33,616 bases of DNA from positions 1-33,616 of the IMG/VR virus record IMGVR_UViG_2778261222_000001. One strand, 5' to 3'. This document shows positions 6,037 to 27,108 of the stretch, piece after piece. The notes under the pieces are model-generated. The model was given only the letters and a program-made list of their open reading frames with translations, searched no databases and was not told the DNA's origin. The stretch comes from a virus. Its lineage: Duplodnaviria; Heunggongvirae; Uroviricota; Caudoviricetes. The translations under genes were made by a program, and so were the position numbers. Every line of letters starts with the position of its first letter. The first letter of the stretch is position 1.

Positions 6037-6478
6037 TAATGGTGGCCTCCCATCGGCGGGTGATTTCGATTGTGAGCGTGGTTTTGTCCGGGCGGGTTAA
6101 CACCACCTGAAAGGCAATACAGTCAGGGATGATGATGCTGGCCGTGACGGTGGCGTTACGGGCGTAACCGGCCCGCAGCAGCGGTTGCATGGACAGCCGC
6201 GCGTAATCTTCCACACGCAGGCGGACATCTTCCGTCAGCTTTTCACGCTCAAGCAGCCACAGGCGGGAACCCCACGAAAAATCGCTGTACGTGTCGCCCG
6301 GCCAGCCGCGCGGGTCGCCGGAACCATCAGGGATGACATCATCGTCATCAGCACGGGCATCGGTGAAAAGGCAGATAAGAACCTGAGTGACCAGCCCCTC
6401 ATCCAGCGAGAGGCCGTTATGGGTGACGGTGATGTCACCCCGTGAGAGCATGTTATTCCAGTGGATTCCTGTCGTCAT
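6026..6478 (-). CDS. Baseplate protein (GPW/gp25-like)
   Basis: 150 aa; position between the spike and J-like genes. Confidence 0.55.
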   Translation of the reverse strand: MTTGIHWNNMLSRGDITVTHNGLSLDEGLVTQVLICLFTDARADDDDVIPDGSGDPRGWPGDTYSDFSWGSRLWLLEREKLTEDVRLRVEDYARLSMQPLLRAGYARNATVTASIIIPDCIAFQVVLTRPDKTTLTIEITRRWEATINAV

Positions 6479-7011
6479 ACGGGCGGTGATGTATTCTCAT
6501 TGTCGCCGTCCTTATGAATGTGTTCGATGAATGATTTACCGTTGATTCTGACATCTTCAGTAAATTCACAGGGACCGACGAATTTCATTTGTTTACCGAT
6601 AATATTCAGCAATTCGTCGGCGGTGAGATTTACCGTTTTCCCTGAAACGTTTAATTGTTCTCCTGTGATTTCAATGACGCCGTTTTCCTTCAGGGTGATG
6701 TGTGATTTGCCGTCCCGGTGATAAAGCCGGACATCGCCGGGGGACAGTCCTTTCGGGCGACATCGCTTGTCCTCCACCGCGATGGCAACCAGCCCGTCAC
6801 GCCGTCCGCCAACGGCCAGCACAATGGCTTCAGAACCTTCCGGCGGAACGGAAGTAAACCCGTAGTTCTGGAAGCGTTCCACGTCGTCGTCAGTGGCATC
6901 TGCCAGCGTCTGGATTTGCAGGTTCTGCCGCTCCAGACTGTCAGACACCATGCGGACAACGGCACGGTCAACCAGCAGCCGCAGACGGCGGGCAATGGCG
7001 TTTAATCCCAT
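6475..7011 (-). CDS. Baseplate assembly protein V / spike-like
   Basis: 178 aa; position after the hub gene; ATG at 7009-7011. Confidence 0.6.
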   Translation of the reverse strand: MGLNAIARRLRLLVDRAVVRMVSDSLERQNLQIQTLADATDDDVERFQNYGFTSVPPEGSEAIVLAVGGRRDGLVAIAVEDKRCRPKGLSPGDVRLYHRDGKSHITLKENGVIEITGEQLNVSGKTVNLTADELLNIIGKQMKFVGPCEFTEDVRINGKSFIEHIHKDGDNENTSPPV

Positions 7012-8072: not shown

Positions 8073-9346
8073 CAGTCGGTAATCTCCACAGGTTGCGTCG
8101 GCAGAATGAATGACGGATGGCGCAGGCGGTTACGCTGCACGATTTCATCCCGTCGGCTGGTGTCACCATGCTCGCGCCATGCCAGCAATGCGGCAGATGT
8201 GGTTGTGGTCAGCGTCACCTGCCGGGTTTCCGGCAGACGGGCGGCACGCTCGCGGGCATCCGTAATCACGGCCTGCCGTAAATCGCGCAGCGTTCGCCAC
8301 AATGCCCGCTGGTTATTTTCCACCGCCGCCACCGCCTGCTCATGCAGTTCAGCCGCCAGCGTGTCACCGGCAGATAACGCCGCGTCACTGGTATCGAACG
8401 TCATCGAGGCCACGGCATTTGCCTGTCCCAGCAGGGTTTCCAGCACAACTACCTGGCGGAAGTCGTCAATGTTCTTCTGCAGGCTGTCAGACACCGGCTG
8501 ATAACCCGGTGACAGCCCAATAGCAAAGCCGATTTCACCGTCTGCCACGCTACCGGGCTTCACGGTGATATCTTCCGGCAGTGCGCCGGTGGCAACCTGT
8601 CGGGCACGTTCTCCGGCCCACTGGTTGCGTAATGTCGTGTAAACCGCCAGTGCTTCGGGTGGTTCCGTCACCAGATCAACCACGCCGTCGATGAACGAGG
8701 ACAACTCACTGACCAGACGTCCCGGCGTGGCAATAATGGTTCCGGCCATCTCCTTAAAATGGTTCAGCCTGTCCATCCACTGATTCAGTGCTGCCGGTAA
8801 CGTGGGTAGATTAGCTACAAGGTTTTCCATATCGGCCAGAAAGCTGTCGGCCATCTCACCCAGCCCGTCAAGTGCGCCGAACCAGTCGCCATCGTCGATG
8901 GCAGCTTTTACCGCATCAATGCCCGTCAGCACTTCCTGCTGCGTGTTATCCGCCGCAGACGGGAACAGGCGCTCGCCTGCCTCAAACACTTCAAAGGTGA
9001 CATACGCAATGCCATCTTCCTCCGTGCTGAGGCGATGGGTGACCTTGCCAACCTGTACGGTCTGTATCCCGAACCACGGGTGGATAAGCTCACCGGGGCC
9101 GGGAGTATTAAGCGCGTCTAAAAGGGCGTTTAAATCATCCCGGAAGTTTTTACCTGGCAGCTTTGCGTTAATCTGCTGTTGCCCCGGAACAGCCCCGTTA
9201 TCATCCGTCCAGGCGGTTTCGCGCCGGGGATACGCGCGGGGAATCGCTCTGCGGCCACCGGTGCCTTCCGTATCCACCAGAAAGAAGGGGACGCCGCGAA
9301 ACGAGGCGTCGCGCAGCCCGTCCCATTTGCCTTTGCCTGTTGTCAT
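8072..9346 (-). CDS. DNA circularization protein (Mu N-like)
   Basis: 424 aa; position directly after the tape measure gene; start overlaps the tape-measure stop (TAATG). Confidence 0.75.
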   Translation of the reverse strand: MTTGKGKWDGLRDASFRGVPFFLVDTEGTGGRRAIPRAYPRRETAWTDDNGAVPGQQQINAKLPGKNFRDDLNALLDALNTPGPGELIHPWFGIQTVQVGKVTHRLSTEEDGIAYVTFEVFEAGERLFPSAADNTQQEVLTGIDAVKAAIDDGDWFGALDGLGEMADSFLADMENLVANLPTLPAALNQWMDRLNHFKEMAGTIIATPGRLVSELSSFIDGVVDLVTEPPEALAVYTTLRNQWAGERARQVATGALPEDITVKPGSVADGEIGFAIGLSPGYQPVSDSLQKNIDDFRQVVVLETLLGQANAVASMTFDTSDAALSAGDTLAAELHEQAVAAVENNQRALWRTLRDLRQAVITDARERAARLPETRQVTLTTTTSAALLAWREHGDTSRRDEIVQRNRLRHPSFILPTQPVEITD

Positions 9347-11157: not shown

Positions 11158-11353
11158 GCTGTTTCTCCAGTTGCTTTATCAGGCGGAACAGCTGCCTCAG
11201 GGGCAACTGTTCCAGGTACTGAATGCTGAATCGCTGAGACAGGTTAACCAGCAGGTTCATCAGTGCCGCCGCCAGCGGCATCAGTTCGCCCCCGCGTTGC
11301 CACCTCCTCAAGCATGTCATCCAGCGCAGCAGCTTTCGTGCTGATAAGCTCAA
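11144..11353 (-). CDS. Possible frameshift-extension ORF of the tail assembly chaperone (T-like)
   Basis: Open frame overlapping the 3' end of the chaperone gene in the +1 frame and ending 13 nt inside the tape-measure start; position equals the conserved G/GT frameshift location. Confidence 0.3.
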   Translation of the reverse strand: MSLSARKLLRWMTCLRRWQRGGELMPLAAALMNLLVNLSQRFSIQYLEQLPLRQLFRLIKQLEKQHGNR

Positions 11354-15546: not shown

Positions 15547-15550
15547 GGCT

Positions 15551-15600
15551 CTGCCTTTTAAAAGGCAGTTAAAAGGGCATTCACAGCACCTTTTAACTGC
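15551..15600 (-). terminator. Overlapping alternative hairpins between the capsid gene and the next gene
   Basis: Perfect palindrome ctgccttttaaaaggcag (15551-15568) and an 11-bp-stem hairpin gcagttaaaag...cttttaactgc (15565-15600) share the ctgc bases. Confidence 0.35.
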
Positions 15601-15617
15601 GGTTTACGGATGAAGGT

Positions 15618-16520
15618 TTATGCCGGGGTGGTGATGTACGGGCTGTCCACGATCTCCACATCCTTGTACCAGATGTTGGAATCGCCGCCGTTAACCAGCA
15701 TGGCGTCAATAATGAGCTTCGCGTCCGCACGGTTTTTCGGCCCCACCACAAGGGTGGTCGGGCGGATGCCCAGTGGTTCACCGTTGGTACCCTTCATGCC
15801 CCGCAGCAACTCATTGGCTTTTTTGTAGTTCTCCACCGTCAGTGCCGCACGGGAACCGACGGCGGTCTGCCAGAAGCCGAAGCCTGCATTACAGCGACCG
15901 TCCACCCCGTACAGGAATTCGTTATTCTTGAAGGTGTGCTCGCTGTTCAGATCGTCCAGGGCTTCAAACTTAAAGGCGCGTCGCGTCTGCCAGATAATGG
16001 GTTTCAGTACCTGCGACTCATCAATCAGGAACCACGGCTCACCCTTGTCTGATGCCGGGGTGCCGACAACGTTGCTGTACGTGCCGTCACCCAGCGGGTG
16101 GTCTTCATCAAAGAAGTTCTGGCCGTCAAAGCACAAAGTTTTGAATCCGGCACACAGCAGGGCGTAACACAGCTTGTCCGGGAACACGGCTGTCATACGT
16201 CCATAGCGTTCAGCAGTAATGCTGTACTGACCAATCTGGTCATCTTCAATGTGTTCGCGCTTAACGCGAATGGAACTTTCCCAGAGTTTGTTGGTGATGG
16301 TGTAACCATAACCGTCCAGCGTTGCCAGCTGACGCTCACCGACCCATTCTTTGATGTCCGGTAAATCTTTCATCCAGCCGTAGGTGTTGGAGGCTGACGA
16401 ACTCGGCACCTCAGAAGCAATGCGATTCCACTGCGGTTCGACACCACTCAGTCCACGGGTAAAGGCGGCGCTCAGGCAGGTGGTCAGTGCATGAAGGATT
16501 TCGGAATTGACTGCTCCCAT
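15618..16520 (-). CDS. Major capsid protein (Mu T-like)
   Basis: 300 aa; follows the protease/scaffold gene with a TGATG overlap. Confidence 0.8.
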   Translation of the reverse strand: MGAVNSEILHALTTCLSAAFTRGLSGVEPQWNRIASEVPSSSASNTYGWMKDLPDIKEWVGERQLATLDGYGYTITNKLWESSIRVKREHIEDDQIGQYSITAERYGRMTAVFPDKLCYALLCAGFKTLCFDGQNFFDEDHPLGDGTYSNVVGTPASDKGEPWFLIDESQVLKPIIWQTRRAFKFEALDDLNSEHTFKNNEFLYGVDGRCNAGFGFWQTAVGSRAALTVENYKKANELLRGMKGTNGEPLGIRPTTLVVGPKNRADAKLIIDAMLVNGGDSNIWYKDVEIVDSPYITTPA

Positions 16521-17482
16521 CAGTTATTCTCCTGTTTTGGTTTAGCGGCGAGGAACTCTTCCCCGGTAATACCCATGCTGCGACACATCGCCAGTTCGGC
16601 GTCGGTCAGTGTCTCCGCGGGTTTATCCTTGCCCTGGCTGGGCTTGTCGTTGTTCACCAGCGGCTGTGTGCCTTTGGTGTATTCCGCAAACTGTTTGCGG
16701 CCTTCTTCCGTGCGGCAGGTGGCAAGGAACATGTCACGGTTTGCCGGGGCCACTTTTCCGGCTTCGATGGCCGCATCCACAAGCGCCCCGGCTTCCTTCT
16801 CTTCCAGTTGCTGAAGGCGTTTTTCTGCGGTTTCGGCACGGTTCAGTGCCAGATTGTGGGTTTCCACCGGCACAAACTTCGTCAGATCAGGTGTCTGTGC
16901 GCGGTTCAGCGCCACCTGTTCGTTCTCCTGAAGTTGTTTAATGGCAGCCACGGTATCGTCCACCGTGGCGGATTCAGCCAGCCCAAGCAGGCCGGTGATT
17001 TGCACAGGTACTGTCATCGGGTTTTTCTCCGTATTCAGTGCAGGAAAATCCAGGTTAGGTTTGTTGGTCAGCCCGACGCTGGACAGGCGCGTCACCACAC
17101 CGTCTGCGTCAAAGAAAAACGCCGGGCTGTAATAGCGGTAGCGACGCTCACTCAGCATCCACCGGGCGTACTCGCTCCAGACAACACGGCCTTCAATGGT
17201 GCCGCCATCCGTCACCCGCAGTTCTTCCACCCAGCCATACGCCGGGGCTTCATCACCGCGTTGCCCTTTAATTTCGGTGGCATGTTCAATGTCCACCGGA
17301 ATTTTGATGTCGGACGAACGGGCGATCACCTCATGCGGATTGCGGTTAATCCACGTCCGTCCATCGCGCCCGGTAAACTCACCCGCAGGGACGAGCTCAA
17401 GCCATTCCGGCAGTTGAGCAGGTGTCAGCTCAGGGATGGGTTCTGGCAGGGAAAAACACAGCGCCAGCAGTTCCGGTTGCAT
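16520..17482 (-). CDS. Prohead protease / scaffold protein (Mu I-like)
   Basis: 320 aa with a coiled-coil C-terminal half; GGAG Shine-Dalgarno 7 nt upstream of the ATG at 17480-17482. Confidence 0.75.
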   Translation of the reverse strand: MQPELLALCFSLPEPIPELTPAQLPEWLELVPAGEFTGRDGRTWINRNPHEVIARSSDIKIPVDIEHATEIKGQRGDEAPAYGWVEELRVTDGGTIEGRVVWSEYARWMLSERRYRYYSPAFFFDADGVVTRLSSVGLTNKPNLDFPALNTEKNPMTVPVQITGLLGLAESATVDDTVAAIKQLQENEQVALNRAQTPDLTKFVPVETHNLALNRAETAEKRLQQLEEKEAGALVDAAIEAGKVAPANRDMFLATCRTEEGRKQFAEYTKGTQPLVNNDKPSQGKDKPAETLTDAELAMCRSMGITGEEFLAAKPKQENN

Positions 17483-17530
17483 GTCAGTCTCCGTCGTTTG
17501 GGGTTACCGACGGTCAGTATGCGGAAGGCA

Positions 17531-17556
17531 GAAAAAAAGCCGGATTTACCGGCTTC
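17531..17556 (-). terminator. Rho-independent terminator (minus strand), copy 1 of a repeated element
   Basis: On the minus strand: 7-bp stem aagccgg, loop taaat, stem ccggctt, followed by seven T; lies between the F-like gene and the protease gene. Confidence 0.6.
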
Positions 17557-17695
17557 ACTGAAAACAGGGAAATACCCCCTTCAAAACCACTTCAAAAACG
17601 CCACAGCACCTTCAAAAAAGTCAGAATGCACATTCACGCCATCAGAATAAAAAACGCGATTCTGGTGCGTTTCAGGGGGATTTACGGCGGGAGGG

Positions 17696-18460
17696 TTACT
17701 CACTGTCAAAACGGGCCTGTTTTGTCGCCAGCTGGCGCGCCAGCTCCTGCTCACGGTTTATGCCGGGATTGTAGTTCCAGCCCGGATCAATCCCTTCCGG
17801 CACATCTTCCTCTTCGCCCGTACGTTTGTTCACCCAGCGGACAGTTCTAATTTCCGGCGCTTCGGTGTGAATGGTGCCCTGTGCCGCCAGTTGTGCATAT
17901 TCACCACGGCTGACCTGACGGATGGTGCATTTGCAGCCCCAGCCGTTAGGGGCAAAATGCGTCTGCCAGAACGGATGATCTACCGGCAGACACAGACGCG
18001 CCCATTTCACATGCTCCGCCCGGTGCTCGCGGGATGGCCCCAGCTCATAAATCAGATACGGCATGGCCCGCTTTGTCCGCTGAATGCGTTCCCACTGGCC
18101 CGCCGCGCGGGCGGTGCGCATGTTGGTGTCAAAAATCGTGCGGAGGCGGCGGTCGCTGCCCAGCTGTACGGTGCGCCTTTCACCCGTCAGCGGATCATCC
18201 ATCTCCTGAACGCCCCACCATCCGCGTTTTATCAGCAGCGGTTGCAGCGCCTCCCGGAACTCGCTGAACGTCTGCCCGCTTTGCAGGGCGTCTTCCACAA
18301 GGGCTTTCACATCCGACAACAAATCCAGTTGCAGCATTTTTGCCACGGTGAAGCTGTTCCGGTGCTCTTCCCGCCACACATCCCGGTAATCAAAACCGGG
18401 GCGCAGCTTCTTCGCCTTCAGCCACGCCAGCGCCTCTTTCGGGATGAGAGTTTCACGCAT
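17696..18460 (-). CDS. Head morphogenesis protein (Mu F-like)
   Basis: Position after the portal gene; likely start is the ATG at 18458-18460 with GGGGGA Shine-Dalgarno (track ORF extends to 18517). Confidence 0.65.
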   Translation of the reverse strand: MRETLIPKEALAWLKAKKLRPGFDYRDVWREEHRNSFTVAKMLQLDLLSDVKALVEDALQSGQTFSEFREALQPLLIKRGWWGVQEMDDPLTGERRTVQLGSDRRLRTIFDTNMRTARAAGQWERIQRTKRAMPYLIYELGPSREHRAEHVKWARLCLPVDHPFWQTHFAPNGWGCKCTIRQVSRGEYAQLAAQGTIHTEAPEIRTVRWVNKRTGEEEDVPEGIDPGWNYNPGINREQELARQLATKQARFDSE

Positions 18461-20024
18461 GACCGGTGTCCCCCAGCGCACGCGCCTTAAAGCACACCTC
18501 CGCCAGTTGCAGGGCAAAGTCGTCCGCGTTCAGCGTTTCCTGAAGCTCAGGCAGGCGTTTCAGAAAGTCATCAAAACTGTCGCATTCCTGCGCCAGTGTC
18601 AGCACCGGGTTCGTGAACGCTTCGCCTGTTTTCTGCCAGTCACGCAGGGCATCATCCACCATCTGTGCCAGTTCGTCGGGGTGTTCCCGGTTCAGGGCGA
18701 CGCGCTCGCGGTTCATCGCCACATCACCTGACATTCCGGCAGAAACCGGATGCAGAACATCAGCCCCTTCGTCCGGTTCAGCAAGGCCGAACCGGTCCCG
18801 CAGCTCCGATTCCTGAACCCGCATCCCCCGGTCAATCAGCGGCACCAGAGCATCTGTCAGCGCCTTCAGATCTTCTGCTTCACTGATACGCAGAACAACA
18901 CGGGGGTAGTGCGCCTGTGGCCCGTAGTTGGCCTCGATATAGGGACGCACCAGATATTCATTCAGCGTGTTAGCCAGCTGTCGCGCGTCCCAGCGCACAA
19001 TGTCCATGCGCACCTGATTGTGCACGTCCGCCTGTGAACGCGAACTGCCGTTATCCGTGGTCATGGTCTGCCCCAGCACAGCCTTACTGATTTGTGCATC
19101 ACACCATTCCGCCATTTCACGGAACAGTGCGCCGCCGTTATTCCGGCTGGCGGTTTCCTTCATCTCCAGTTGCATGGACTGCGGAATGGCACACCCTGCA
19201 TCCGAGGCAATGGAGGCAATCGCATCAATCAGTACGCGGATTTGCTCCTCCGTGGCGTTGGGACCGTATTTCCCCACCGTCACCGGAATGCCGAATTTTT
19301 CCGCGAATGCCCACCAGTCACGCACGGTATAGGATTTCAGCATGTACATCACCGCCACCAGACGGGCCAGACCGTTACGCAGCGGCAGACCGGATTTCAG
19401 GCGCGGCTGGTGAACAATGAATTTTCCCGGTGTCAGCGGTACGCCATCCACCGGTTCGTCATCCGTCAGCAGGCGGAACTGGCGCAGCGTGGGTTTTTCG
19501 GCTTTCAGAAAACGGGGATCAACCCACTCATAATCACGGGGCACCCAGTGGTTATTGCGGGTGTTCCACAGAATTTCACAGACCGCCACGCCTTTCCCCA
19601 GCCCGTCAAGCAGATCAAACATCAGCTCGGGGATTTGCGGCGCGGCCATCAGCTCACGGATGGCATCCGCCAGCTGCACATCGGCATCGTCGTCACTGGC
19701 AGCCACCACCACCGGCTCGATACCCGCCACCGTCAGCTTGCGGGTGCGCAGTACCGAGGCGTAATGCAAATCGCGTTCTTCCATCTCTTCGGCAAGGATA
19801 AAAAAATCACGCGTGATGCCGTCGGCGGCATTGCGCAGAATGCCTGCCAGCCTGCCGGGATTCAGCCCGGAAGCAATGCTGATGCCCGGCGAGGCCGAGC
19901 GCACGCCAGCCTGACGCGGACGGGCCTGTATTTCATCGAGCGTCTCTTTTTTGAGCCTGTCTTCCTCACCGGTTGCCGGGTTCAGCAGACGGCGAACGGC
20001 CCCGGCCAGTTGTTTCAGGTTCAC
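18453..20024 (-). CDS. Portal protein (Mu H-like)
   Basis: 523 aa; GTG start overlapping the terminase stop (GTGA) with GAGGGAGG Shine-Dalgarno; position after the large terminase. Confidence 0.85.
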   Translation of the reverse strand: MNLKQLAGAVRRLLNPATGEEDRLKKETLDEIQARPRQAGVRSASPGISIASGLNPGRLAGILRNAADGITRDFFILAEEMEERDLHYASVLRTRKLTVAGIEPVVVAASDDDADVQLADAIRELMAAPQIPELMFDLLDGLGKGVAVCEILWNTRNNHWVPRDYEWVDPRFLKAEKPTLRQFRLLTDDEPVDGVPLTPGKFIVHQPRLKSGLPLRNGLARLVAVMYMLKSYTVRDWWAFAEKFGIPVTVGKYGPNATEEQIRVLIDAIASIASDAGCAIPQSMQLEMKETASRNNGGALFREMAEWCDAQISKAVLGQTMTTDNGSSRSQADVHNQVRMDIVRWDARQLANTLNEYLVRPYIEANYGPQAHYPRVVLRISEAEDLKALTDALVPLIDRGMRVQESELRDRFGLAEPDEGADVLHPVSAGMSGDVAMNRERVALNREHPDELAQMVDDALRDWQKTGEAFTNPVLTLAQECDSFDDFLKRLPELQETLNADDFALQLAEVCFKARALGDTGHA

Positions 20025-21556
20025 AGTAAGCCTCCCTCATTTTTCAGTCCGCGTGTCAGCTTCATCTGGCGGCGCACGTTGCGTTCTTCCGGTTTCGCCG
20101 GGCGGTTCAGGCGGTGCAGCTCGTAACGGTGGCAGTCATCCTTGCTGGCAAGGAAGCCCAGGAAAATGGCCACAGCGGCGTCGCCGTGACGTTTGTGACC
20201 GTCGCTGCCTTTGGTTCGTGAATCATCAATGCCGGGAACGCCACGCAGTAACTGAATGGCCCCGAGGTCATTGATCACGTCTTCATGCTTCGGAAGGATC
20301 AGCTCATCATCTTCAAACGCTGCACGGAACCGGGGCATGTTTTCGCGGTAGAACGCCACGGACAGCATCACCTGTTCCACTTCATCGCCGTACCGCTCCG
20401 CCGCCTGTTCTGCCAGATACTGACCGTTCCCCCGCGCATCCATTTTGATACCGTCACGACGGGGCAGACGATCGCAAAGCCAGAACAGCACCTGCTCCTG
20501 CTGTTTAAACGGCACATTGCCAAGCTCAACCAGGAACGGCACCTCGCGGGTGGTGTCATCGTTCACCGTCACCGGGGCCAGTACGGTCAGGTCACCCGAA
20601 CGCGCAAAGTCTTCCCCCAGACAGTGGCGCAGATTCTTCGGGAGTTTTTTCAGCTTGGGACGCACCACCGTTTCCAGCCATTCCCGGATATCTGCCCGGC
20701 GCTGGCTTTCCGTCAGTGCGTTAAATTCCGGTGTACCGGTAAAACGCAACACTTTTCCGGTTCCACGGGCCGCACGCTCACGCAGTGAGCGGGGGATATA
20801 CGTGCCGCCGCCGTTTTTCGGGACGCAGTAATACTCCTCCAGCGCATCTTCGCGGGTGGCGGTATTTCGCAGCAGGCCTTCTTTCCATTCCGCCTCGGCT
20901 TCCGGTGACCACACCATGCCGCGCACCTGACAGATACGCCGGTACAGCCCGTCATTGCAGGCGTCATCCAGCGTGATGGTGTGAATGCGGTAATCCCGTT
21001 TTCCTGCGCGGCTTTCCTGAATCAGCTGGTTAAACAGGTTGTCCACGCCGTCATGGGTGGAAATAAGGCGAATTTTGCCGCCCCATGTTTTCAGCGGCAG
21101 CACAGCCTTCAGCAGCTCGTCCAGTTTTTCATGGAACGCGGCCTCGTCGATGGTGACATTCCCCTGCATCCCGCGAATGTTGCTCGGGTTGCTGGACAGT
21201 GCCTTGACCTTAAAACCGCTGGCGAAGTACACGACGAACGTCAGAATGTCCTTGTCTTCGTCGGTGATCACTTCCTCGCAGATTTCTTCCGCTGCCGCAT
21301 TAAACGCTTTCGCCCACATCGCCACGGCGTCGATAAATTCGCGGGCCATCTCCTTATTCGAACCGATATAAAAGTGATCGCGCCCGCCGTCTTCCTTCTT
21401 CAGTGATGCCGTCAGTGCCGCATCCGCAGCTTCCGCCCAGGTTAAACCGGTACGGCGGGATTTCTCGGCGATTTTCAGGTCGGCATCATCCGCCACCCAG
21501 CGTTTCTGATACGGCAGCAGAACATCATATTCACTGAACGTGTCCATTTGTGTCAT
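20021..21556 (-). CDS. Terminase large subunit
   Basis: 511 aa; ATGA overlap with the upstream small-subunit-like gene. Confidence 0.85.
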   Translation of the reverse strand: MTQMDTFSEYDVLLPYQKRWVADDADLKIAEKSRRTGLTWAEAADAALTASLKKEDGGRDHFYIGSNKEMAREFIDAVAMWAKAFNAAAEEICEEVITDEDKDILTFVVYFASGFKVKALSSNPSNIRGMQGNVTIDEAAFHEKLDELLKAVLPLKTWGGKIRLISTHDGVDNLFNQLIQESRAGKRDYRIHTITLDDACNDGLYRRICQVRGMVWSPEAEAEWKEGLLRNTATREDALEEYYCVPKNGGGTYIPRSLRERAARGTGKVLRFTGTPEFNALTESQRRADIREWLETVVRPKLKKLPKNLRHCLGEDFARSGDLTVLAPVTVNDDTTREVPFLVELGNVPFKQQEQVLFWLCDRLPRRDGIKMDARGNGQYLAEQAAERYGDEVEQVMLSVAFYRENMPRFRAAFEDDELILPKHEDVINDLGAIQLLRGVPGIDDSRTKGSDGHKRHGDAAVAIFLGFLASKDDCHRYELHRLNRPAKPEERNVRRQMKLTRGLKNEGGLL

Positions 21557-22134
21557 GCGCTAATCCCCAGAATTTCACGTTTGATGGTGTCAGCCGCACC
21601 ACCTGACAGACCGCCCGTTCTGACCAGTTCTTCGGTTTTCTCTGCCATCTCCTGCGCAAACGCATCACGGATCGCTTTCTCGCGTTTATGGCTGGTCATG
21701 GCTGCCGCTTCCAGACGCTGGGCAACCAGCGCCAGTTGCCCCAGCGCCTTTGGTGCTACAGGTTTGTCGTCTTCTGCCATCGACATGGACGTTTCAAAGG
21801 CCAGCGTTTTTACAAACTCCATCAGCAGCTTGCCGACGTCTGACGTCGGCGCGGAACCCAGCTTTGCCGCCCAGACTTCGGCCATTTCGCGGGAGGCGCG
21901 GATTTTGGCCCCGACTTTTTCCATGCGGATGGCATAGCGGTTTAAGCCCGTCCGGCTTAACTGCATCTCTTCCGGCAGGTTGTGTTCGTCAATCAGGGCG
22001 TTGATGGCTTCGCGGATTTCTTCCTGCGTGTGCCGCTTTTCCCGCAGCATCTGATGCAACTGCTCCCGGATGCTGTCCGGGAGTAAATCCACTTTGGAAA
22101 GACGGCCACGGGTGGGGCGTTGTTCATTTTCCAT
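21553..22134 (-). CDS. Terminase small subunit-like protein (Mu gp27-like)
   Basis: Basic N-terminus; likely start is the ATG at 22132-22134 with AGGAGG 6 nt upstream; directly precedes the large terminase. Confidence 0.6.
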   Translation of the reverse strand: MENEQRPTRGRLSKVDLLPDSIREQLHQMLREKRHTQEEIREAINALIDEHNLPEEMQLSRTGLNRYAIRMEKVGAKIRASREMAEVWAAKLGSAPTSDVGKLLMEFVKTLAFETSMSMAEDDKPVAPKALGQLALVAQRLEAAAMTSHKREKAIRDAFAQEMAEKTEELVRTGGLSGGAADTIKREILGISA

Positions 22135-22271
22135 GTGTGCCCTCCTGTTGCTCACTACGCTGTAAACTTTCGTATGCAGATTTCAGCGCGCCACTCTGGA
22201 TTTCCCGCCATGTCAGGTTGTGCGCCAGACGGCGGAGTTCATCACGGGACGCTTTACTTATCGGATTCTTT

Positions 22272-22571
22272 TTACGGTTCACGACGGCCCCCGTCTTCAG
22301 TTCCCGGTGTTTTCAGACCGGCGTATATTTCTTCGCGAACGGACCGGATATCCTTACCCAGCAGTTTCCACAGCCGCGCACATGCCGGTGATGAGCGCAG
22401 GGCACATTTCATGGGGGTATCCGGTGCATCCGGGTTCCAGGGCTTTCCGGTCTGTTGTTCATATGCACGGGCGATGGCGTTTTTCTCAATATCCGCGAGC
22501 ACAAGACAGTACGCCAGCTGCCGCACGACGGCCCGTTCTCCGCGACTTAACGGCTTCAGTTTTCGGGCCAT
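22272..22571 (-). CDS. Hypothetical protein
   Basis: 99 aa; ATG at 22569-22571 with GAGGGA Shine-Dalgarno. Confidence 0.45.
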   Translation of the reverse strand: MARKLKPLSRGERAVVRQLAYCLVLADIEKNAIARAYEQQTGKPWNPDAPDTPMKCALRSSPACARLWKLLGKDIRSVREEIYAGLKTPGTEDGGRREP

Positions 22572-22573
22572 GC

Positions 22574-22867
22574 TCAGTCCCTCGCACGGGGTTTTTTAAC
22601 GCCCGGAACGCTGGACAGGCCGTTTGCCACATCCTCGCCGCTGCCGGTGATTTCAGCCACGTAACAGCCGCCCACATCAGACAGACGAACCAGCCCCTGC
22701 TCGCGCAACCATGCAAGCTGGGTGCGTACCACATCACGGGATACCTTATGACCGTAAGCCTGAAGGCAGGTCTGCAACACGGATTCATTCGCGCTGTCGC
22801 CACAGTCCAGCAGGGAACGCAGCAACACCAGACGACGGTCTTCAGTGAGGATCTCTTTCATCGCCAT
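22574..22867 (-). CDS. Hypothetical protein, possible winged-helix fold
   Basis: 97 aa; TAATG overlap with the upstream gene. Confidence 0.45.
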   Translation of the reverse strand: MAMKEILTEDRRLVLLRSLLDCGDSANESVLQTCLQAYGHKVSRDVVRTQLAWLREQGLVRLSDVGGCYVAEITGSGEDVANGLSSVPGVKKPRARD

Positions 22868-23172
22868 TAATTTTTTTCCTTTAACTCGTTCTCTAATAAC
22901 AAATCACTGATGCGGGATACCTGGCGGATGGATGGCCCCAGCTCTTTGATTTCTCCCCGCAGGTTGCTGATATCCAGTTGCAGGCGGTGGAACTCATCAC
23001 GGTCGGGTAAATGGTGTACCTGGCTTTCCATAACCGACACGCGGGAACGGAGTGAATCAAACTCTTCACGTTTGACGTAGGTTTTCGCCAGAATCAACTG
23101 AAGCAGGTTTATTCCTGTCATCAGCAATGCCCACAGAATGGGCCAGTTGGCCCGGATCATTTCCCAGGACAC
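22867..23172 (-). CDS. Membrane-anchored coiled-coil protein (possible lysis accessory/spanin-like)
   Basis: N-terminal hydrophobic helix WPILWALLMTGINLLQLIL followed by a coiled coil; 101 aa. Confidence 0.45.
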   Translation of the reverse strand: MSWEMIRANWPILWALLMTGINLLQLILAKTYVKREEFDSLRSRVSVMESQVHHLPDRDEFHRLQLDISNLRGEIKELGPSIRQVSRISDLLLENELKEKN

Positions 23173-23384
23173 GTTTTCCTCCTGCGTTCCCGCATCTGTT
23201 GACAGTCAATACAGGTCACCACATCCGGCAGCGCCGCAAGGCGCTGTACCGGAATAACGTTCCCGCAGTCATTGCAGAAGCCCCGGCTGTGGGACGCTTC
23301 TTTTGTCCGCGTCTGCCAGGCTTTAACGACGCTCTGACGCTCGTTCAGAACCACTTCACTGATGCGGTCGATTTCGTCGGTCAT
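23157..23384 (-). CDS. TraR/DksA-family C4 zinc-finger protein
   Basis: CNDC-x17-CIDC spacing (CxxC-x17-CxxC) near the C-terminus; 75 aa. Confidence 0.7.
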   Translation of the reverse strand: MTDEIDRISEVVLNERQSVVKAWQTRTKEASHSRGFCNDCGNVIPVQRLAALPDVVTCIDCQQMRERRRKTCPGK

Positions 23385-23989
23385 TTCGGCCCCGCAGATA
23401 TTTTGTGACGGCTTGATTTGCTGTAACGGGCAAAGCCGTCAAGGGTTCGCACGCCGAGATAGCCCAGCGCAGGGGTAAGCAACATCAGCGTGATATCCCA
23501 GTCCGGTGACGGCATATGCAGCGTGATACCTCTGGCACCGGCAATGGCTCCGGCAATCTGGCCGCAGGAAAGCAACAGCACATAGGCCAGACTGCTGTAA
23601 CAGGACAGGCGGGCCAGCAGCGGGCGCGTCTGGCGCACATAGCTGTCCGTGGCGTTGTCACCATTGCGGATGGTTTCCTGCTGTTCATGGTGTGTGGCCT
23701 GCTGGTCAGCCAGCACCAGCTTCTGCCGTTCCACCTCCAGCTGTTGCAGCTGAACTTTCAGGGTTTCCATCTGCATCAGTTGCTCCGGTGACAGCATCAC
23801 CAGCTTTTGTTCCAGAATGCGTTGCTGTTCAGCCACCGGCAGGCTTTCCCGGACGCTTTCCACCATACCGGCCACCGAGTCAGCGGCGGCAGATGTACTG
23901 CCACCAAACCAGCGCCCGACGGAACGAATCAGCCCCGGCCCGGCTTTCAGCAGAACAGAGGCGATGCCTGAAAGGGTTAACGGATCCAT
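23381..23989 (-). CDS. Putative holin-like membrane protein
   Basis: 202 aa; hydrophobic N-terminal segment, central coiled coil, C-terminal hydrophobic helices; located in the lysis block. Confidence 0.4.
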   Translation of the reverse strand: MDPLTLSGIASVLLKAGPGLIRSVGRWFGGSTSAAADSVAGMVESVRESLPVAEQQRILEQKLVMLSPEQLMQMETLKVQLQQLEVERQKLVLADQQATHHEQQETIRNGDNATDSYVRQTRPLLARLSCYSSLAYVLLLSCGQIAGAIAGARGITLHMPSPDWDITLMLLTPALGYLGVRTLDGFARYSKSSRHKISAGPK

Positions 23990-24387
23990 GAATCCCCCTT
24001 ATGAAAACGGCGCTGATGTTTATAAAGTGCCGCGCAAAAAATACCGCCCAGCCAGAACGCCAGCTGATAAGGCTCCTTCAGATAAAGAATGCCGAATGTC
24101 AGCATGAAAAAACCAACGGCCCAGACCACCCATGACCACACGACAATTCGAAGGGAAGCGGCCCGGAAACGCCTTTTGGGTTGCAGGCGATAAGGTACGT
24201 TGCCCAGCTGGAAACTGTGAATCAGACAGAGTGTCGCGCCGTATGCCAGCACCATGACCGCAAACGCCCGCCATCCGGCAAAACAGCTCGCCAGAAAAAG
24301 TACTGCCGACAGCCCCAGAAACGACCACTGGCACAACATAAAGCGGGAGTAAATAACGCGAACAAAAAGACTATTCATTCTGTGCAT
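23977..24387 (-). CDS. Integral membrane protein (about 4 TM helices)
   Basis: Start at ATG 24385-24387 with AAGGA Shine-Dalgarno; four hydrophobic segments (the track ORF extends upstream with no obvious start). Confidence 0.5.
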   Translation of the reverse strand: MHRMNSLFVRVIYSRFMLCQWSFLGLSAVLFLASCFAGWRAFAVMVLAYGATLCLIHSFQLGNVPYRLQPKRRFRAASLRIVVWSWVVWAVGFFMLTFGILYLKEPYQLAFWLGGIFCAALYKHQRRFHKGDSWIR

Positions 24388-24598
24388 TGAGTTTTTCCTT
24401 GTACTTCTGGCACTGCCAGAAAATGTCCCGTGTATCCACGGAGTTCCAGCCACGCATGTAATAGCTGGCGTGTGTGCCGTCATGGCCGGTGTAGTCCACC
24501 GGCTTCGGGGGCGGGCCTCCGGCCATGCGGTGCAAAATCTCCTGACGCAGGCGGTCACGCCGCCCGGCTTTCAGTGAGGCATCCCAGCCTTTACCCAT
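24371..24598 (-). CDS. Hypothetical small protein downstream of the endolysin
   Basis: 75 aa; starts immediately after the lys stop. Confidence 0.4.
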   Translation of the reverse strand: MGKGWDASLKAGRRDRLRQEILHRMAGGPPPKPVDYTGHDGTHASYYMRGWNSVDTRDIFWQCQKYKEKLNAQNE

Positions 24599-24599
24599 A

Positions 24600-25196
24600 T
24601 CACCCCCGCGTGGCGGACATGATGCCCTGGGGGGTATCGATGATTTCCAGACAGGCGTCGGTCAGTTTTTCCATGCGGTTAAACCAGCCGTTCAGGTATT
24701 TACCCTGGGCGGGTTTTGACTTGATGATGTCGGCATAAAAGCGGGAACGACGGACAATGCAACGGGCCAGCAACCAGTCCGGGGTGGACAGGCTCACGGC
24801 CTTACGGGTACGCGGACCGATGATGCCGTCAGCATCCACATCAGCGGCTTCCTGCAAAATCCTGATGGCTTTTTTAACGCCATGCTGAACCGCCGCATCG
24901 AACACAAACATCGCCACGCCATCAGGCCACTGGTCACATCCGGCAGGCAGCCAGTAATCGCGCCAGTAAATCTGCGCAACCTGTTCGCGGGTCAAATCCC
25001 TGATGCGGGTATCCGGTTTGCCGTCACCGTTGACATCGGTTTTGCCGTCAATCACACCGTCGCGGCGGTCAGAAATGCCGTATTTAGTTTCGCCGCCACG
25101 GTCTGTGGGGTCATTGACATAGCCGCCTTCGATATCAGGACGCAGGATAAAATTCAGCGCATGTTCAAAGGTCGGGGAGAATTTTTGATTTTCCAT
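24600..25196 (-). CDS. Endolysin, GH108-type N-acetylmuramidase with peptidoglycan-binding domain
   Basis: N-terminal motif EGGYVNDPTDRGGETKYGI typical of glycoside hydrolase family 108; AGGTG Shine-Dalgarno upstream. Confidence 0.8.
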   Translation of the reverse strand: MENQKFSPTFEHALNFILRPDIEGGYVNDPTDRGGETKYGISDRRDGVIDGKTDVNGDGKPDTRIRDLTREQVAQIYWRDYWLPAGCDQWPDGVAMFVFDAAVQHGVKKAIRILQEAADVDADGIIGPRTRKAVSLSTPDWLLARCIVRRSRFYADIIKSKPAQGKYLNGWFNRMEKLTDACLEIIDTPQGIMSATRG

Positions 25197-25250
25197 AAAA
25201 GCACCTGTGAAGCAGATTTAAACGTGGTCTGCTTCATGGTGCCGGAGGCA

Positions 25251-25276
25251 TAAAAAAAGCCGGATTTACCGGCTTC
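25251..25276 (-). terminator. Rho-independent terminator (minus strand), copy 2 of the repeated element
   Basis: Same aaaaaaagccggatttaccggcttca sequence as at 17531-17556; hairpin plus seven T on the minus strand, between the moron and lys. Confidence 0.6.
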
Positions 25277-25297
25277 ATTGAATATCAGGTTATTGGC

Positions 25298-25795
25298 TCA
25301 GTTAACTTTACGGGCAGAACATGTAGTCTTCATTACTGAACGTTCAATTTTTATCTTCCAGCCATTTACTGTTTTTTCGACAGGATCATCTTCAGCTTGC
25401 TTTAAATTTTCAACTTGCATGAAATTCAGTGGGGCTGGGGTATCATCGTCCCATGATGTCGGGCGAACATAATCAGGGACAACAAAAGGCTCAAAAACAG
25501 TTTCACATAAAGCAGACGTCATTTGAGCGAACTCGTCGCTATCGGGGCGAACCGGTCCTGTAACATACTGCATTTTTATGTTGATTTCGTTATCTCGCAC
25601 AGACGCCTTTAAATCCTGATATACACCTAAGTTAAATCCTTTAAACTCAGCAATGGCAGCGTCACCTTTACCATACCAGTCGGTATAGTCAACGGATGTT
25701 TTTTTCTGAAAAACATCTTTGACTTTTTGCTGGAATGTATCCTCCGCTTGTACAGTAGTAACAGTTAGTAAAAGAATAAGGGGAAGATATTTCAT
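25298..25795 (-). CDS. Secreted protein of unknown function (moron)
   Basis: N-terminal signal peptide MKYLPLILLLTVTTVQA followed by ED; visibly AT-rich codon usage compared with flanking genes; ATGA overlap with the mor stop. Confidence 0.6.
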   Translation of the reverse strand: MKYLPLILLLTVTTVQAEDTFQQKVKDVFQKKTSVDYTDWYGKGDAAIAEFKGFNLGVYQDLKASVRDNEINIKMQYVTGPVRPDSDEFAQMTSALCETVFEPFVVPDYVRPTSWDDDTPAPLNFMQVENLKQAEDDPVEKTVNGWKIKIERSVMKTTCSARKVN

Positions 25796-26193
25796 TGTTC
25801 GTCCTTAAATAGTTGCATTTGATATTTTCCACGCTCCAGTCGGCGCATTCTTTTGATGGCCTGATATACCGTTTTGTATGTCACTTTGTAACGCTGCACC
25901 AGCTCCGCTACGTTTTTCCCATCAAAATCACGCCAGATGCGCATGTCTCTGATAAGATTTTCCAGTATTTTCCCTTTCGGAACATATACCTGAATCCCAC
26001 CGATATGATTGCAAATCGCCACTACCAGCTCAAGGGAGTGGGCAGGGTTAACTCCAAGCCTTATCAGCTCCTGTCGCAACAGAGCATTCAGCTCAGCCAG
26101 TAAAGATGGAAATCCCGATTTTTCCTGAACATCATCAAAATATTCAAGGATACTGTCGTCCTGATAATCACCAAATAAATCCTGCTCTTTCAT
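25792..26193 (-). CDS. mor: Mor/C-family transcriptional activator (Mor by position)
   Basis: 133 aa; C-terminal region YKTVYQAIKRMRR fits the Mor/C helix-turn-helix as I recall it; follows gemA as mor does in Mu. Confidence 0.7.
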   Translation of the reverse strand: MKEQDLFGDYQDDSILEYFDDVQEKSGFPSLLAELNALLRQELIRLGVNPAHSLELVVAICNHIGGIQVYVPKGKILENLIRDMRIWRDFDGKNVAELVQRYKVTYKTVYQAIKRMRRLERGKYQMQLFKDEQ

Positions 26194-26741
26194 AGAACTA
26201 TTCTCCCGCTGTTTCTGGCGCGGGCATACGCACTGGTCAGTGCATCATATCCGCGCAGTTCCCGCCCGGTTTCGCTCACAGGTAAAGGCATGCCATGTCG
26301 GGCAAAGGCTTCCCGGATGCAGCGCATATGCCACTGTTTGAGCGTTTCGAGCACAACCTGCAACGATTCCCCATGACACCAGGCCAGCGTGGAAACACCC
26401 TGACCACCATTACGTCTGGCCGTCAGGCGTTCAACGTATTTGTCCAGCGCGGCGTCGCTGATATCGGATACGAAACCATCAAGAAACATCTGCTGCCAGA
26501 TTTTATAAATCTTCTCGCGCGGTGTGACATGCCCCTTAAAGCGACGGCGGGGATGTTTATTCTGCTTTTTAAAACCGCGCTCTTTCATGGCATCGAGCAC
26601 TTGTTCCAGTTGTGCAACGGACAGCTCGCGGCAACTGGTTTTGCCCGTGCACTGCACCAGAAAGGCGCGGTAAGTGTCATCGTCGAGGTGCAACTCCCGG
26701 CGGGCAACATGAATTAATTTAATCAGGGATGTGCGACTCAT
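26190..26741 (-). CDS. gemA: GemA-like regulatory protein
   Basis: Position immediately upstream of mor; ATG at 26739-26741 (track ORF begins at a GTG at 26786). Confidence 0.65.
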   Translation of the reverse strand: MSRTSLIKLIHVARRELHLDDDTYRAFLVQCTGKTSCRELSVAQLEQVLDAMKERGFKKQNKHPRRRFKGHVTPREKIYKIWQQMFLDGFVSDISDAALDKYVERLTARRNGGQGVSTLAWCHGESLQVVLETLKQWHMRCIREAFARHGMPLPVSETGRELRGYDALTSAYARARNSGRIVL

Positions 26742-27108
26742 TTTGCCCCATCTCCTTAATGCAGTGTTTTTCGACCCATGCCACACGAGCAGAATTCAGG
26801 TGGCATCTGTCATGTAGGCATTCATCATGGTAGTGCACGTTATCTACATTAAATGGCAGGGATTCATCCAGCCCACTCGCGACAAAATCCGCATGTAATT
26901 GTTCTAGCGCAGCCTCGCTGTCTGCTCCGATTGATTCAAAATAGTCATAAACATTGGCGCATAATCCGACTCCCCGAATAAACCCTTCCCCTTCCGTTTC
27001 TTGCGCTCCGTTTTTTAACCACTGGTTATAGGCGACATAAAAATCATAAAGATGTTTTCTGGTGCTGGCGGATGCGGATTTAATTTCATTTTTCTCTGCG
27101 TTATTCAT
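26719..27108 (-). CDS. Hypothetical early protein with His/Cys-rich motif
   Basis: 129 aa; HYHDECLHDRCH motif suggests metal binding. Confidence 0.45.
   Translation of the reverse strand: MNNAEKNEIKSASASTRKHLYDFYVAYNQWLKNGAQETEGEGFIRGVGLCANVYDYFESIGADSEAALEQLHADFVASGLDESLPFNVDNVHYHDECLHDRCHLNSARVAWVEKHCIKEMGQNESHIPD

Follow-up and report, generated by a model that had tools for sequence, protein, structure and literature searches.

In bacteriophage Mu, the promoter Pm is activated by the protein Mor and drives a single middle operon, which ends in the gene for a second activator, C; C is in turn needed at the late promoters Plys, ahead of the lysis genes, and PI, ahead of the protease gene I. 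Mor binds an imperfect dyad at −51 to −36 of Pm, centred at −43.5 (PMC4287176, PMC4390567), and recruits RNA polymerase via the C-terminal domains of the alpha and sigma subunits (PMC4287176). According to a preprint (10.1101/2025.05.02.651988), Mor binds as a tetramer, directly 5' to a suboptimal −35 element. The present analysis concerns a 26-bp sequence, AAAAAAAGCCGGATTTACCGGCTTCA on the plus strand, that occurs twice in a stretch of 33,616 nucleotides from a virus of the Caudoviricetes (IMG/VR record IMGVR_UViG_2778261222_000001, positions 1 to 33,616; here called the window), which is a Mu-like prophage. An original prediction, made from the sequence alone, regarded the two copies as terminator hairpins that insulate late operons from one another, and placed copy 2 between the early block and lys and copy 1 between the F-like gene and the protease-capsid block, where the gene context indeed puts them. 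Here, it is argued that each 26-mer is quite probably the upstream half of a Pm-type, Mor-dependent σ70 promoter and, at the same time, encodes an intrinsic terminator.

The repeat and its likeness to Mu Pm

The 26-mer is present in exactly two copies in the window (Table 1), one base higher than the coordinates first given for them (17531-17556 and 25251-25276). No third copy with up to three mismatches occurs elsewhere in the window, and 100 dinucleotide-preserving shuffles yielded 0 matches. On the coding (minus) strand, the repeat reads TGAAGCCGGTAAATCCGGCTTTTTTT and forms the hairpin arms GAAGCCGG-TAAAT-CCGGCTTT, followed by further T, in both copies. A terminator scan recovered each of them with eight pairs (five G-C), a 5-nt loop and a T-run of seven T, about four of which lie beyond the 8-bp stem (T7 is counted from the 5-bp G-C stem). 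The corresponding U-tracts occupy 17532-17538 and 25252-25258. Folding of the RNA, which had been proposed as a check, was carried out on 41 nt and gave a centroid of −12.6 kcal/mol (z = −3.0). The hairpin is unidirectional, as the plus strand lacks a T-run. By scan and fold alike, the minus-strand terminator shape claimed originally is canonical at both copies; Rfam, searched over the whole window at gathering thresholds, returned no family. Similarity between the copies extends beyond the repeat to about 44 bp (some 40 of 44 positions), in the form TTCA[G/A]-26mer-[C/A]TGCCT[T/C]C[C/G]GCA.

The minus-strand 26-mer is identical at 24 of 26 positions to TAAAGCCGGTTAATCCGGCTTTTTTT of Mu (AF083977 9176-9201). 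Pm is annotated at AF083977 9163-9233, directly after mor, with the local sequence ACAGTAAAGCCGGTTAATCCGGCTTTTTTTACGTCCTCAATATCCT, and the counterpart of the 26-mer spans its positions −49 to −24, i.e., part of the Mor dyad, the adjacent bases and the T-tract. This numbering was derived from Table 3 of PMC4390567 (−57 to −52 = GTAAAC) and applied to AF083977; it sets +1 at 9224 and the −10 hexamer, TATCCT, 10 nt past the T7 run. The Mor dyad of Mu is then AGTAAAGCCGGTTAAT (AGTAA-AGCCGG-TTAAT), and the Mor site reaches from the bases immediately 5' of the stem through its left arm and across the loop. Both window copies align to this layout without gaps, which yields a predicted Mor-binding dyad for each (Table 1). 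Just past the dyad, CCGGCTTTTTTT (CCGGC-T7) is the same in both copies as in Mu, where the bases immediately downstream of the dyad are reported to be critical for activation (PMC2582627). The −10-like hexamers CATACT and CACCAT are spaced exactly as TATCCT is in Pm, and the −35 position of both sites reads TCCGGC, so that there is no −35 element. That a terminator-shaped hairpin overlaps the Mor site in Mu is already known from the annotation of AF083977, which carries a terminator predicted by TransTermHP at 9179-9200, within the annotated Pm.

Alternatively, the two copies might be intrinsic terminators and nothing else: the late operons would then be served by separate promoters, by read-through or by antitermination, and the identity of the copies would be incidental. 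The canonical terminator geometry of both copies is what this explanation predicts, as is their position after stop codons at operon ends: copy 2 is situated 21 nt past the stop codon of orf165, and copy 1 lies inside the 213-bp F-I intergenic region, 139 nt past the stop codon of F. However, it leaves unexplained the 24/26 identity with Pm and the equal spacing of the −10 hexamer. Moreover, separate late promoters downstream of the hairpins, which the original prediction had invoked, do not find a place: just 50-56 bp separate the T-run from the start codon at each copy; this interval holds the −10-like hexamer, and a σ70 scan of it gave no complete promoter at either copy. Termination alone is therefore an unlikely account of the repeat, on which the comparison with relatives bears further. 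As for the proposed modular insulator, the terminator shape at operon ends agrees with it, but the 26-mer is itself the predicted activator site of a promoter.

Table 1. Coordinates of the repeat, of the predicted promoter elements and of the flanking features in the window
Feature	Position	Strand	Evidence or remark
Copy 1 of 26-mer	17532..17557	-	predicted -49 to -24 of a Pm-type promoter of the protease/capsid operon; RNA = 8-bp hairpin + U7
Copy 2 of 26-mer	25252..25277	-	predicted -49 to -24 of a Pm-type promoter of the lysis/packaging operon; predicted early-operon terminator
Predicted Mor-binding imperfect dyad AGTGA-AGCCGG-TAAAT (AGTGAAGCCGGTAAAT)	17544..17559	-	14/16 vs Mu Pm
Predicted Mor-binding imperfect dyad AATGA-AGCCGG-TAAAT (AATGAAGCCGGTAAAT)	25264..25279	-	13/16 vs Mu Pm
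-10-like hexamer CATACT	17516..17521	-	10 nt past T7 run; predicted start near 17508
-10-like hexamer CACCAT	25236..25241	-	10 nt past T7 run; predicted start near 25228
mor	25792..26193	-	PHROG 532 (1.3e-40); Pfam PF08765 (Mor) (6.6e-30); tblastn/blastp
orf165 (165-aa open reading frame), last gene ahead of copy 2, overlaps mor stop codon	25298..25795	-	
Endolysin gene, first gene past copy 2	24600..25196	-	PHROG 315; RefSeq relatives annotated GH108
F-like minor head protein gene, final gene ahead of copy 1	17696..18517	-	PHROG 220
Head maturation protease gene (Mu I-like), first gene downstream of copy 1	16520..17482	-	PHROG 328
Hairpin CCGTCG...CGACGG, predicted 5' end of I transcript, just ahead of ribosome-binding site	17491..17513	-	fold
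Hairpin TGAAGCAGA...TCTGCTTCA, predicted 5' end of lys transcript	25208..25236	-	fold, z = -4.2 (126-nt region)

Conservation at the lys and I sites

The prophage family of the window is found in about 1% of complete E. coli genomes and also in Klebsiella, Raoultella, Kluyvera and Pluralibacter. A search for the 26-mer in related Mu-like phages, likewise suggested at the outset, covered 185,579 species with one genome each: it returned six DNA stretches, and five of these are Mu-like prophages. Exact pairs about 7.66 kb apart are present in Raoultella and Kluyvera, and a single copy in Pluralibacter. The sixth stretch, a contig of an Ignavibacteriaceae metagenome-assembled genome (CAYXTW010000023.1; L001 929-954), is apparently unrelated and contains one exact 26-mer past a stop codon; chance is very unlikely here, and convergence, contamination or transfer are possible.

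More distant relatives were sampled in two ways. Anchoring on Mor homology gave 16 IMG/VR loci, with proteins down to about 60–70% identity. All 16 have one Mor/C match each (Mu has two) and carry AAGCCGGT(A/T)AATCCGGCTTTTTT directly ahead of lys, and at every one of these lys sites the hairpin is retained, with seven or more T in the run. A core pattern scan, the core of which was preset by the search pattern, yielded 125 sites: approximately 74 between mor and lys, 28 between F and I, 12 at the position of Mu Pm after a Mu-type Mor, and 8 in unrelated contexts. Overall, the box was seen ahead of the endolysin gene and ahead of protease gene I in over 100 related prophage contigs. In several phages, a Pm nearly identical to that of Mu, including the context of the mor stop codon, stands directly before lys with no middle operon in between. 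The information profile shows that the flanks diverge freely outside the box, apart from CA(A/G)TG just upstream of it and a short TGCC motif past the T-run. About 22-23 nt past the loop lies a hexamer cAnnnT, whose A (position 2) and T (position 6) are near-invariant in the relatives, as expected of a −10 element. With regard to termination alone, the near-invariant loop and upstream CA(A/G)TG in phages with 60–70% identical proteins are again unexplained, whereas the Ignavibacteriaceae copy, as an apparent terminator, is in line with it.

The exact identity of 26 bp within a single genome could also reflect a recent duplication or gene conversion, a small mobile hairpin element or, as had been considered originally, a recombination hotspot; copy 1 would then have no function specific to its site. 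However, both sites are conserved and syntenic across five genera (Escherichia, Raoultella, Kluyvera, Pluralibacter and Klebsiella), and the scan of 185,579 species placed the 26-mer in no more than six stretches, five of them in Mu-like prophages. Each site class keeps its own bases across diverged clades, CAATGAAG (CAAT) at lys sites and CAGTGAAG (CAGT) at I sites, which indicates that the two copies evolve separately. In several genomes, e.g., those of the L017 and L021 groups, the lys and I copies differ from each other, and none of the 125 scan sites joins an upstream mor to a downstream I. A hotspot is hence unsupported, and a duplication or mobile origin of this kind is barely credible.

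At the I sites, for which an I-anchored sample was combined with the Mor-anchored one, promoter and terminator features come apart. The clade of the window keeps the full 26-mer, and in L163 the stem (GAAGGCGG...CCGCCTTT) is doubly compensated and followed by a weak T-run. In L019, L021 and L022, the T-runs are broken and the terminator is weakened. The I sites of L017, L018, L020, L023 and the Klebsiella phage Kp4866-3 read CAGGGAAAGCGGTTAATCCACTTTCTTCTCC, with hairpin and T-run lost in L017, L018, L020 and L023. The L164-L172 clade reads CAGTGAAGCCGGTTAATCCACCTGAGTCCCC: the hairpin is gone (−1.6 to −4.6 kcal/mol), as is the T-run, but the left half CAGTGAAGCCGGTTAATCC is intact and followed by a CACACT hexamer at the correct distance. 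Thus, the hairpin and T-run are optional at I sites, and the part that is universally kept at I and lys sites is the Mu-defined Mor site together with the −10 hexamer. Pure terminators would not be expected to retain the left arm, the loop and the hexamer after loss of the right arm and T-run.

Where it persists, the hairpin itself seems to be under some selection: in pair counting on 17 distinct I sites, 90% of cells are paired and 4 cells have changed on both sides, a number reached in 0 of 500 shuffles. Compensatory stem changes occur in two lineages. They would suit pure terminators and, to some extent, a Mor site at the perfect hairpin palindrome centred near −38 in place of the Mu-defined dyad at −43.5. 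The Mu-defined site is favoured by the clades that lose the right arm and keep the left arm and loop. We read the pattern as two separate selective pressures: one for promoter function everywhere, the other for termination of the early transcript ahead of the lysis genes.

The opposite simplification would be a promoter only, in which the hairpin-plus-T shape arises incidentally from the requirements of Mor and RNA polymerase (dyad, adjacent bases, T-tract spacer) and no significant termination occurs in vivo. The critical role reported for the bases just downstream of the Mu dyad (PMC2582627) is compatible with this, and the hairpin-less I sites show that the box can exist alone. Yet the right arm and T-run, dispensable for the box at I, persist at each lys site in the sample; without a stop at that point, the early transcript would continue into the lysis genes. 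A G+C-rich stem of 8 bp with U7 behind it also predicts termination strongly. We regard a promoter without terminator function as distinctly improbable.

A single Mor and the predicted control of late transcription

The Mor protein of the window is 63% identical to Mu Mor and 32% identical to Mu C. No second Mor/C gene was found in the window by tblastn with Mu C, Mu Mor and the window's own Mor; Mu C matched mor only. STEC719, an E. coli relative annotated in RefSeq that carries a 96-98% identical prophage, likewise has in that entire prophage a single coding sequence named 'Mor transcription activator family protein'. In the phage collection, two Mor/C places per genome were counted in Mu, D108, SfMu and the Yersinia Mu-like phages, and one in Klebsiella phage Kp4866-3 and in Vibrio, Burkholderia and Pseudomonas Mu-like phages, so that a single activator is common outside the close Mu group. 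The C box TTAT-N5-6-ATAA (consensus per PMC12867686) is present in neither copy.

The termini of the window's Mor were inspected as well: the protein starts with MKEQDLF and ends in ...YQMQLFKDEQ. Its C-terminal Q-x-x-LF resembles the clamp-binding QPDLF of MuC, and Mu Mor ends in QPSLL; these motifs are defined in PMC12867686. Relatives have Mor ends of YQMQLF, QPDLF, YQLDLF or HQMPLF, and some RQYSLDME. Such a motif fits a role of Mor as late activator in phages without C.

The following scheme can be proposed for the prophage. Until Mor has built up, early-promoter transcripts would stop at copy 2, leaving the lysis and structural genes silent: transcribed from upstream, the repeat would form an RNA hairpin, G+C-rich and 8 bp long, with U7 behind it, and terminate the incoming transcript. 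The single Mor would then bind the dyad A(G/A)TGA-AGCCGG-TAAAT (−51 to −36 by analogy with Mu) at both sites and recruit the host σ70 RNA polymerase, the promoter offering a −10 hexamer but no −35 element. Transcription of the lysis/packaging and the protease/capsid operon would begin at the starts given in Table 1. Copy 1 would also end the transcript running from lys to F, ahead of gene I. Since this canonical terminator precedes all of the protease, capsid and tail genes, PI would be obligatory in the phage, and its promoter must overlap copy 1 unless the terminator is read through. As the phage has no C gene, the cascade would have two tiers, with Mor itself activating the late operons.

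The dual function as promoter half and terminator draws its support from the sequence homology to Pm, the gene context, the conservation in relatives and the folding. From these we infer Mor binding, the start sites and termination, and several points weigh against the proposal. Every functional step for the prophage rests on homology to Mu. The window dyads differ from that of Mu at 2-3 of 16 positions and are less symmetric (3/5 symmetric positions compared to 4/5 in Mu), and the specificity of the window's Mor is assumed to be that of its Mu counterpart. The hairpin-less I sites might be decaying relics instead of working promoters. Regarding the comparative data, the unbiased part consists of the flanks and the Mor- and I-anchored samples only. 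Finally, the early transcript of Mu ends at about 9.2 kb, and we take the Mu hairpin to be the early terminator mapped as t9.2, an assumption that has the TransTermHP annotation behind it.

A more general view goes further, and we would give it even chances. Each site would be a dual-coded junction: its RNA stops the upstream operon, its DNA serves as Mor operator and spacer, and transcription restarts only with Mor. In enterobacterial Mu-like phages, such junctions would stand at lys and optionally at I, where they can decay to promoter-only sites. The two-tier cascade would be the common state, the C tier of Mu having been inserted between Pm and lys, and a box inside a baseplate gene (6627-6644, see below) may act as PP does in Mu.

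Gene order, other features and relation to known systems

All genes flanking the repeats are on the minus strand. Their order begins with transposase, GemA (26190-26786), Mor, the 165-aa open reading frame, copy 2 and endolysin, continues with small open reading frames of the lysis region, small and large terminase, portal and the F-like minor head protein, and ends with copy 1, protease I, capsid T, tail genes and com-mom. The product of orf165 has no match in Pfam, PHROG or NCBIfam; a weak PADLOC match to ZorB/MotB-like proteins (E = 0.0017, 15.9 bits) was not credited. In relatives, the slot of orf165 holds differing open reading frames, or none, with mor then directly followed by the box, and it may be an accessory 'moron' position that ends the early operon. 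At the predicted 5' ends of both late transcripts, stable hairpins are found directly ahead of the ribosome-binding site (Table 1). The one ahead of I has counterparts in relatives whose stems differ and nevertheless pair, e.g., CTGTCCGTC...GACGGACAG, and at the place equivalent to the one ahead of lys relatives fold different hairpins. These structures could be 5' stabilisers or translational control elements. Between capsid gene T and the next open reading frame (15547-15617, minus strand), adjacent AT-rich palindromes, AGTTAAAAGG...CCTTTTAACT and CCTTTTAAAAGG, may form an attenuator behind the major capsid gene.

With up to five mismatches to the core or dyad, no other convincing intergenic Mor-type site was detected in the window, and the box is absent from the gaps 22156-22271, 15547-15617 and 11158-11243. 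A dyad match with three mismatches at 22545-22560 was dropped, having no hexamer at the correct spacing, and so was, upon inspection, a core-like match within gene N (8527-8543). Inside the gene for a baseplate assembly protein V / Mu gp45-like protein (6475-7011), the minus strand of 6627-6644 reads CAGGGAAAACGGTAAATC, which resembles the degenerate Mor boxes at the I sites of relatives (CAGGGAAA[G/A]CGGTTAATC). An AT-rich TATTAT follows 23 nt past TAAAT; the motif encodes S-G-K-T-V-N and is present in Kp4866-3 too. In six lineages with less than 85% amino acid identity, the Gly codon is GGG in five of six (GGG is rare elsewhere in the gene), Val is encoded by GTA or GTT only, and Asn by AAT only. 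From its sequence, the motif may be a third, gene-internal Mor-dependent promoter, with coding constraint as the alternative; PP of Mu is likewise gene-internal, in gene N.

Just upstream of copy 1, in the F-I intergenic region (17575-17619, minus strand), the motif TTTT(T)GAAG occurs three times at intervals. In the equivalent place, relatives carry three copies of TTAAACG/TTTGAACG, and Mu has TTTTAAAACG...TTTTTAAACCG...TTTAACGG in the G-I intergenic region, just downstream of the annotated gyrase cut site (AF083977 17879-17880). The motifs are probably the homologue of the central strong gyrase site of Mu. Upstream of com (647-859) and mom (1-738), a GATC-rich palindrome, GACGATCGATATCATCATATCGATCGTC, is located at about 860-950 on the minus strand. 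The region also has TTAT-GATTAA-ATAT, which resembles the C-box consensus TTAT-N5-6-ATAA of Mu and the Mu Pmom sequence ATTATGCCCCAATAAC, yet the prophage has no C gene.

As a regulatory element, the repeat is of an ordinary and already known type. What had looked like a pair of terminators can be reread as the putative control point of late expression in the prophage, recognisable by its homology to one of the most thoroughly studied activator-dependent promoters, and this provides predicted late promoters, start sites and a regulator for a whole prophage family. In the searchable literature, no specific description of late promoters of Mu-like phages without C was found. Two points are modestly new: the comparative evidence that parts the promoter half from the terminator half, and the prediction of two identical Pm-type promoters that would drive late operons directly in a widespread prophage family without C. 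The analysis also suggests that the three-tier cascade of Mu is the exception among its relatives. In practice, the box might be used as a small promoter that is inducible by Mor and already fitted with an upstream terminator, and possibly as a diagnostic sequence when late operons of Mu-like prophages are annotated.

Among known systems, ordinary intrinsic terminators share the G+C-rich 8-bp stem, the 5-nt loop, U7, the restriction to the coding strand and the location past the last gene of an operon. In contrast to the repeat, they lack base-for-base conservation, loop included, across phages with 60–70% identical proteins, and they do not retain one arm and the loop once the other arm is lost. 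Plys and PI of Mu occupy the same positions as the two copies, ahead of lys and, after the head-assembly genes, ahead of protease I, and are organised in the same way, with a −10 hexamer but without a −35 element, the −35 region being overlapped by an activator dyad. They differ in having a C box (PMC12867686) and requiring C, whereas the window has Mor-type boxes and no C gene. Kp4866-3 resembles the window in its one Mor/C-family gene, the box before lys and the degenerate box before I; the Vibrio, Burkholderia and Pseudomonas Mu-like phages are likened to it by gene count alone, with one such gene per genome. Pm itself has the 5-6-5 dyad, the spacer AGCCGG, CCGGC-T7, the 10-nt gap to a weak −10 hexamer, no −35 element, the gene for Mor just upstream and the overlap with a predicted terminator in common with the copies, besides the near-identity over −49 to −24. 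It is a single promoter for a middle operon, unlike the two copies, which are predicted to drive the lysis/packaging and head/tail operons directly; its half-sites are AGTAA/TTAAT (AGTGA/TAAAT in the window), and no extra 165-aa open reading frame separates it from mor as one does at copy 2. By every sequence criterion testable here, the repeat belongs with Mu Pm.

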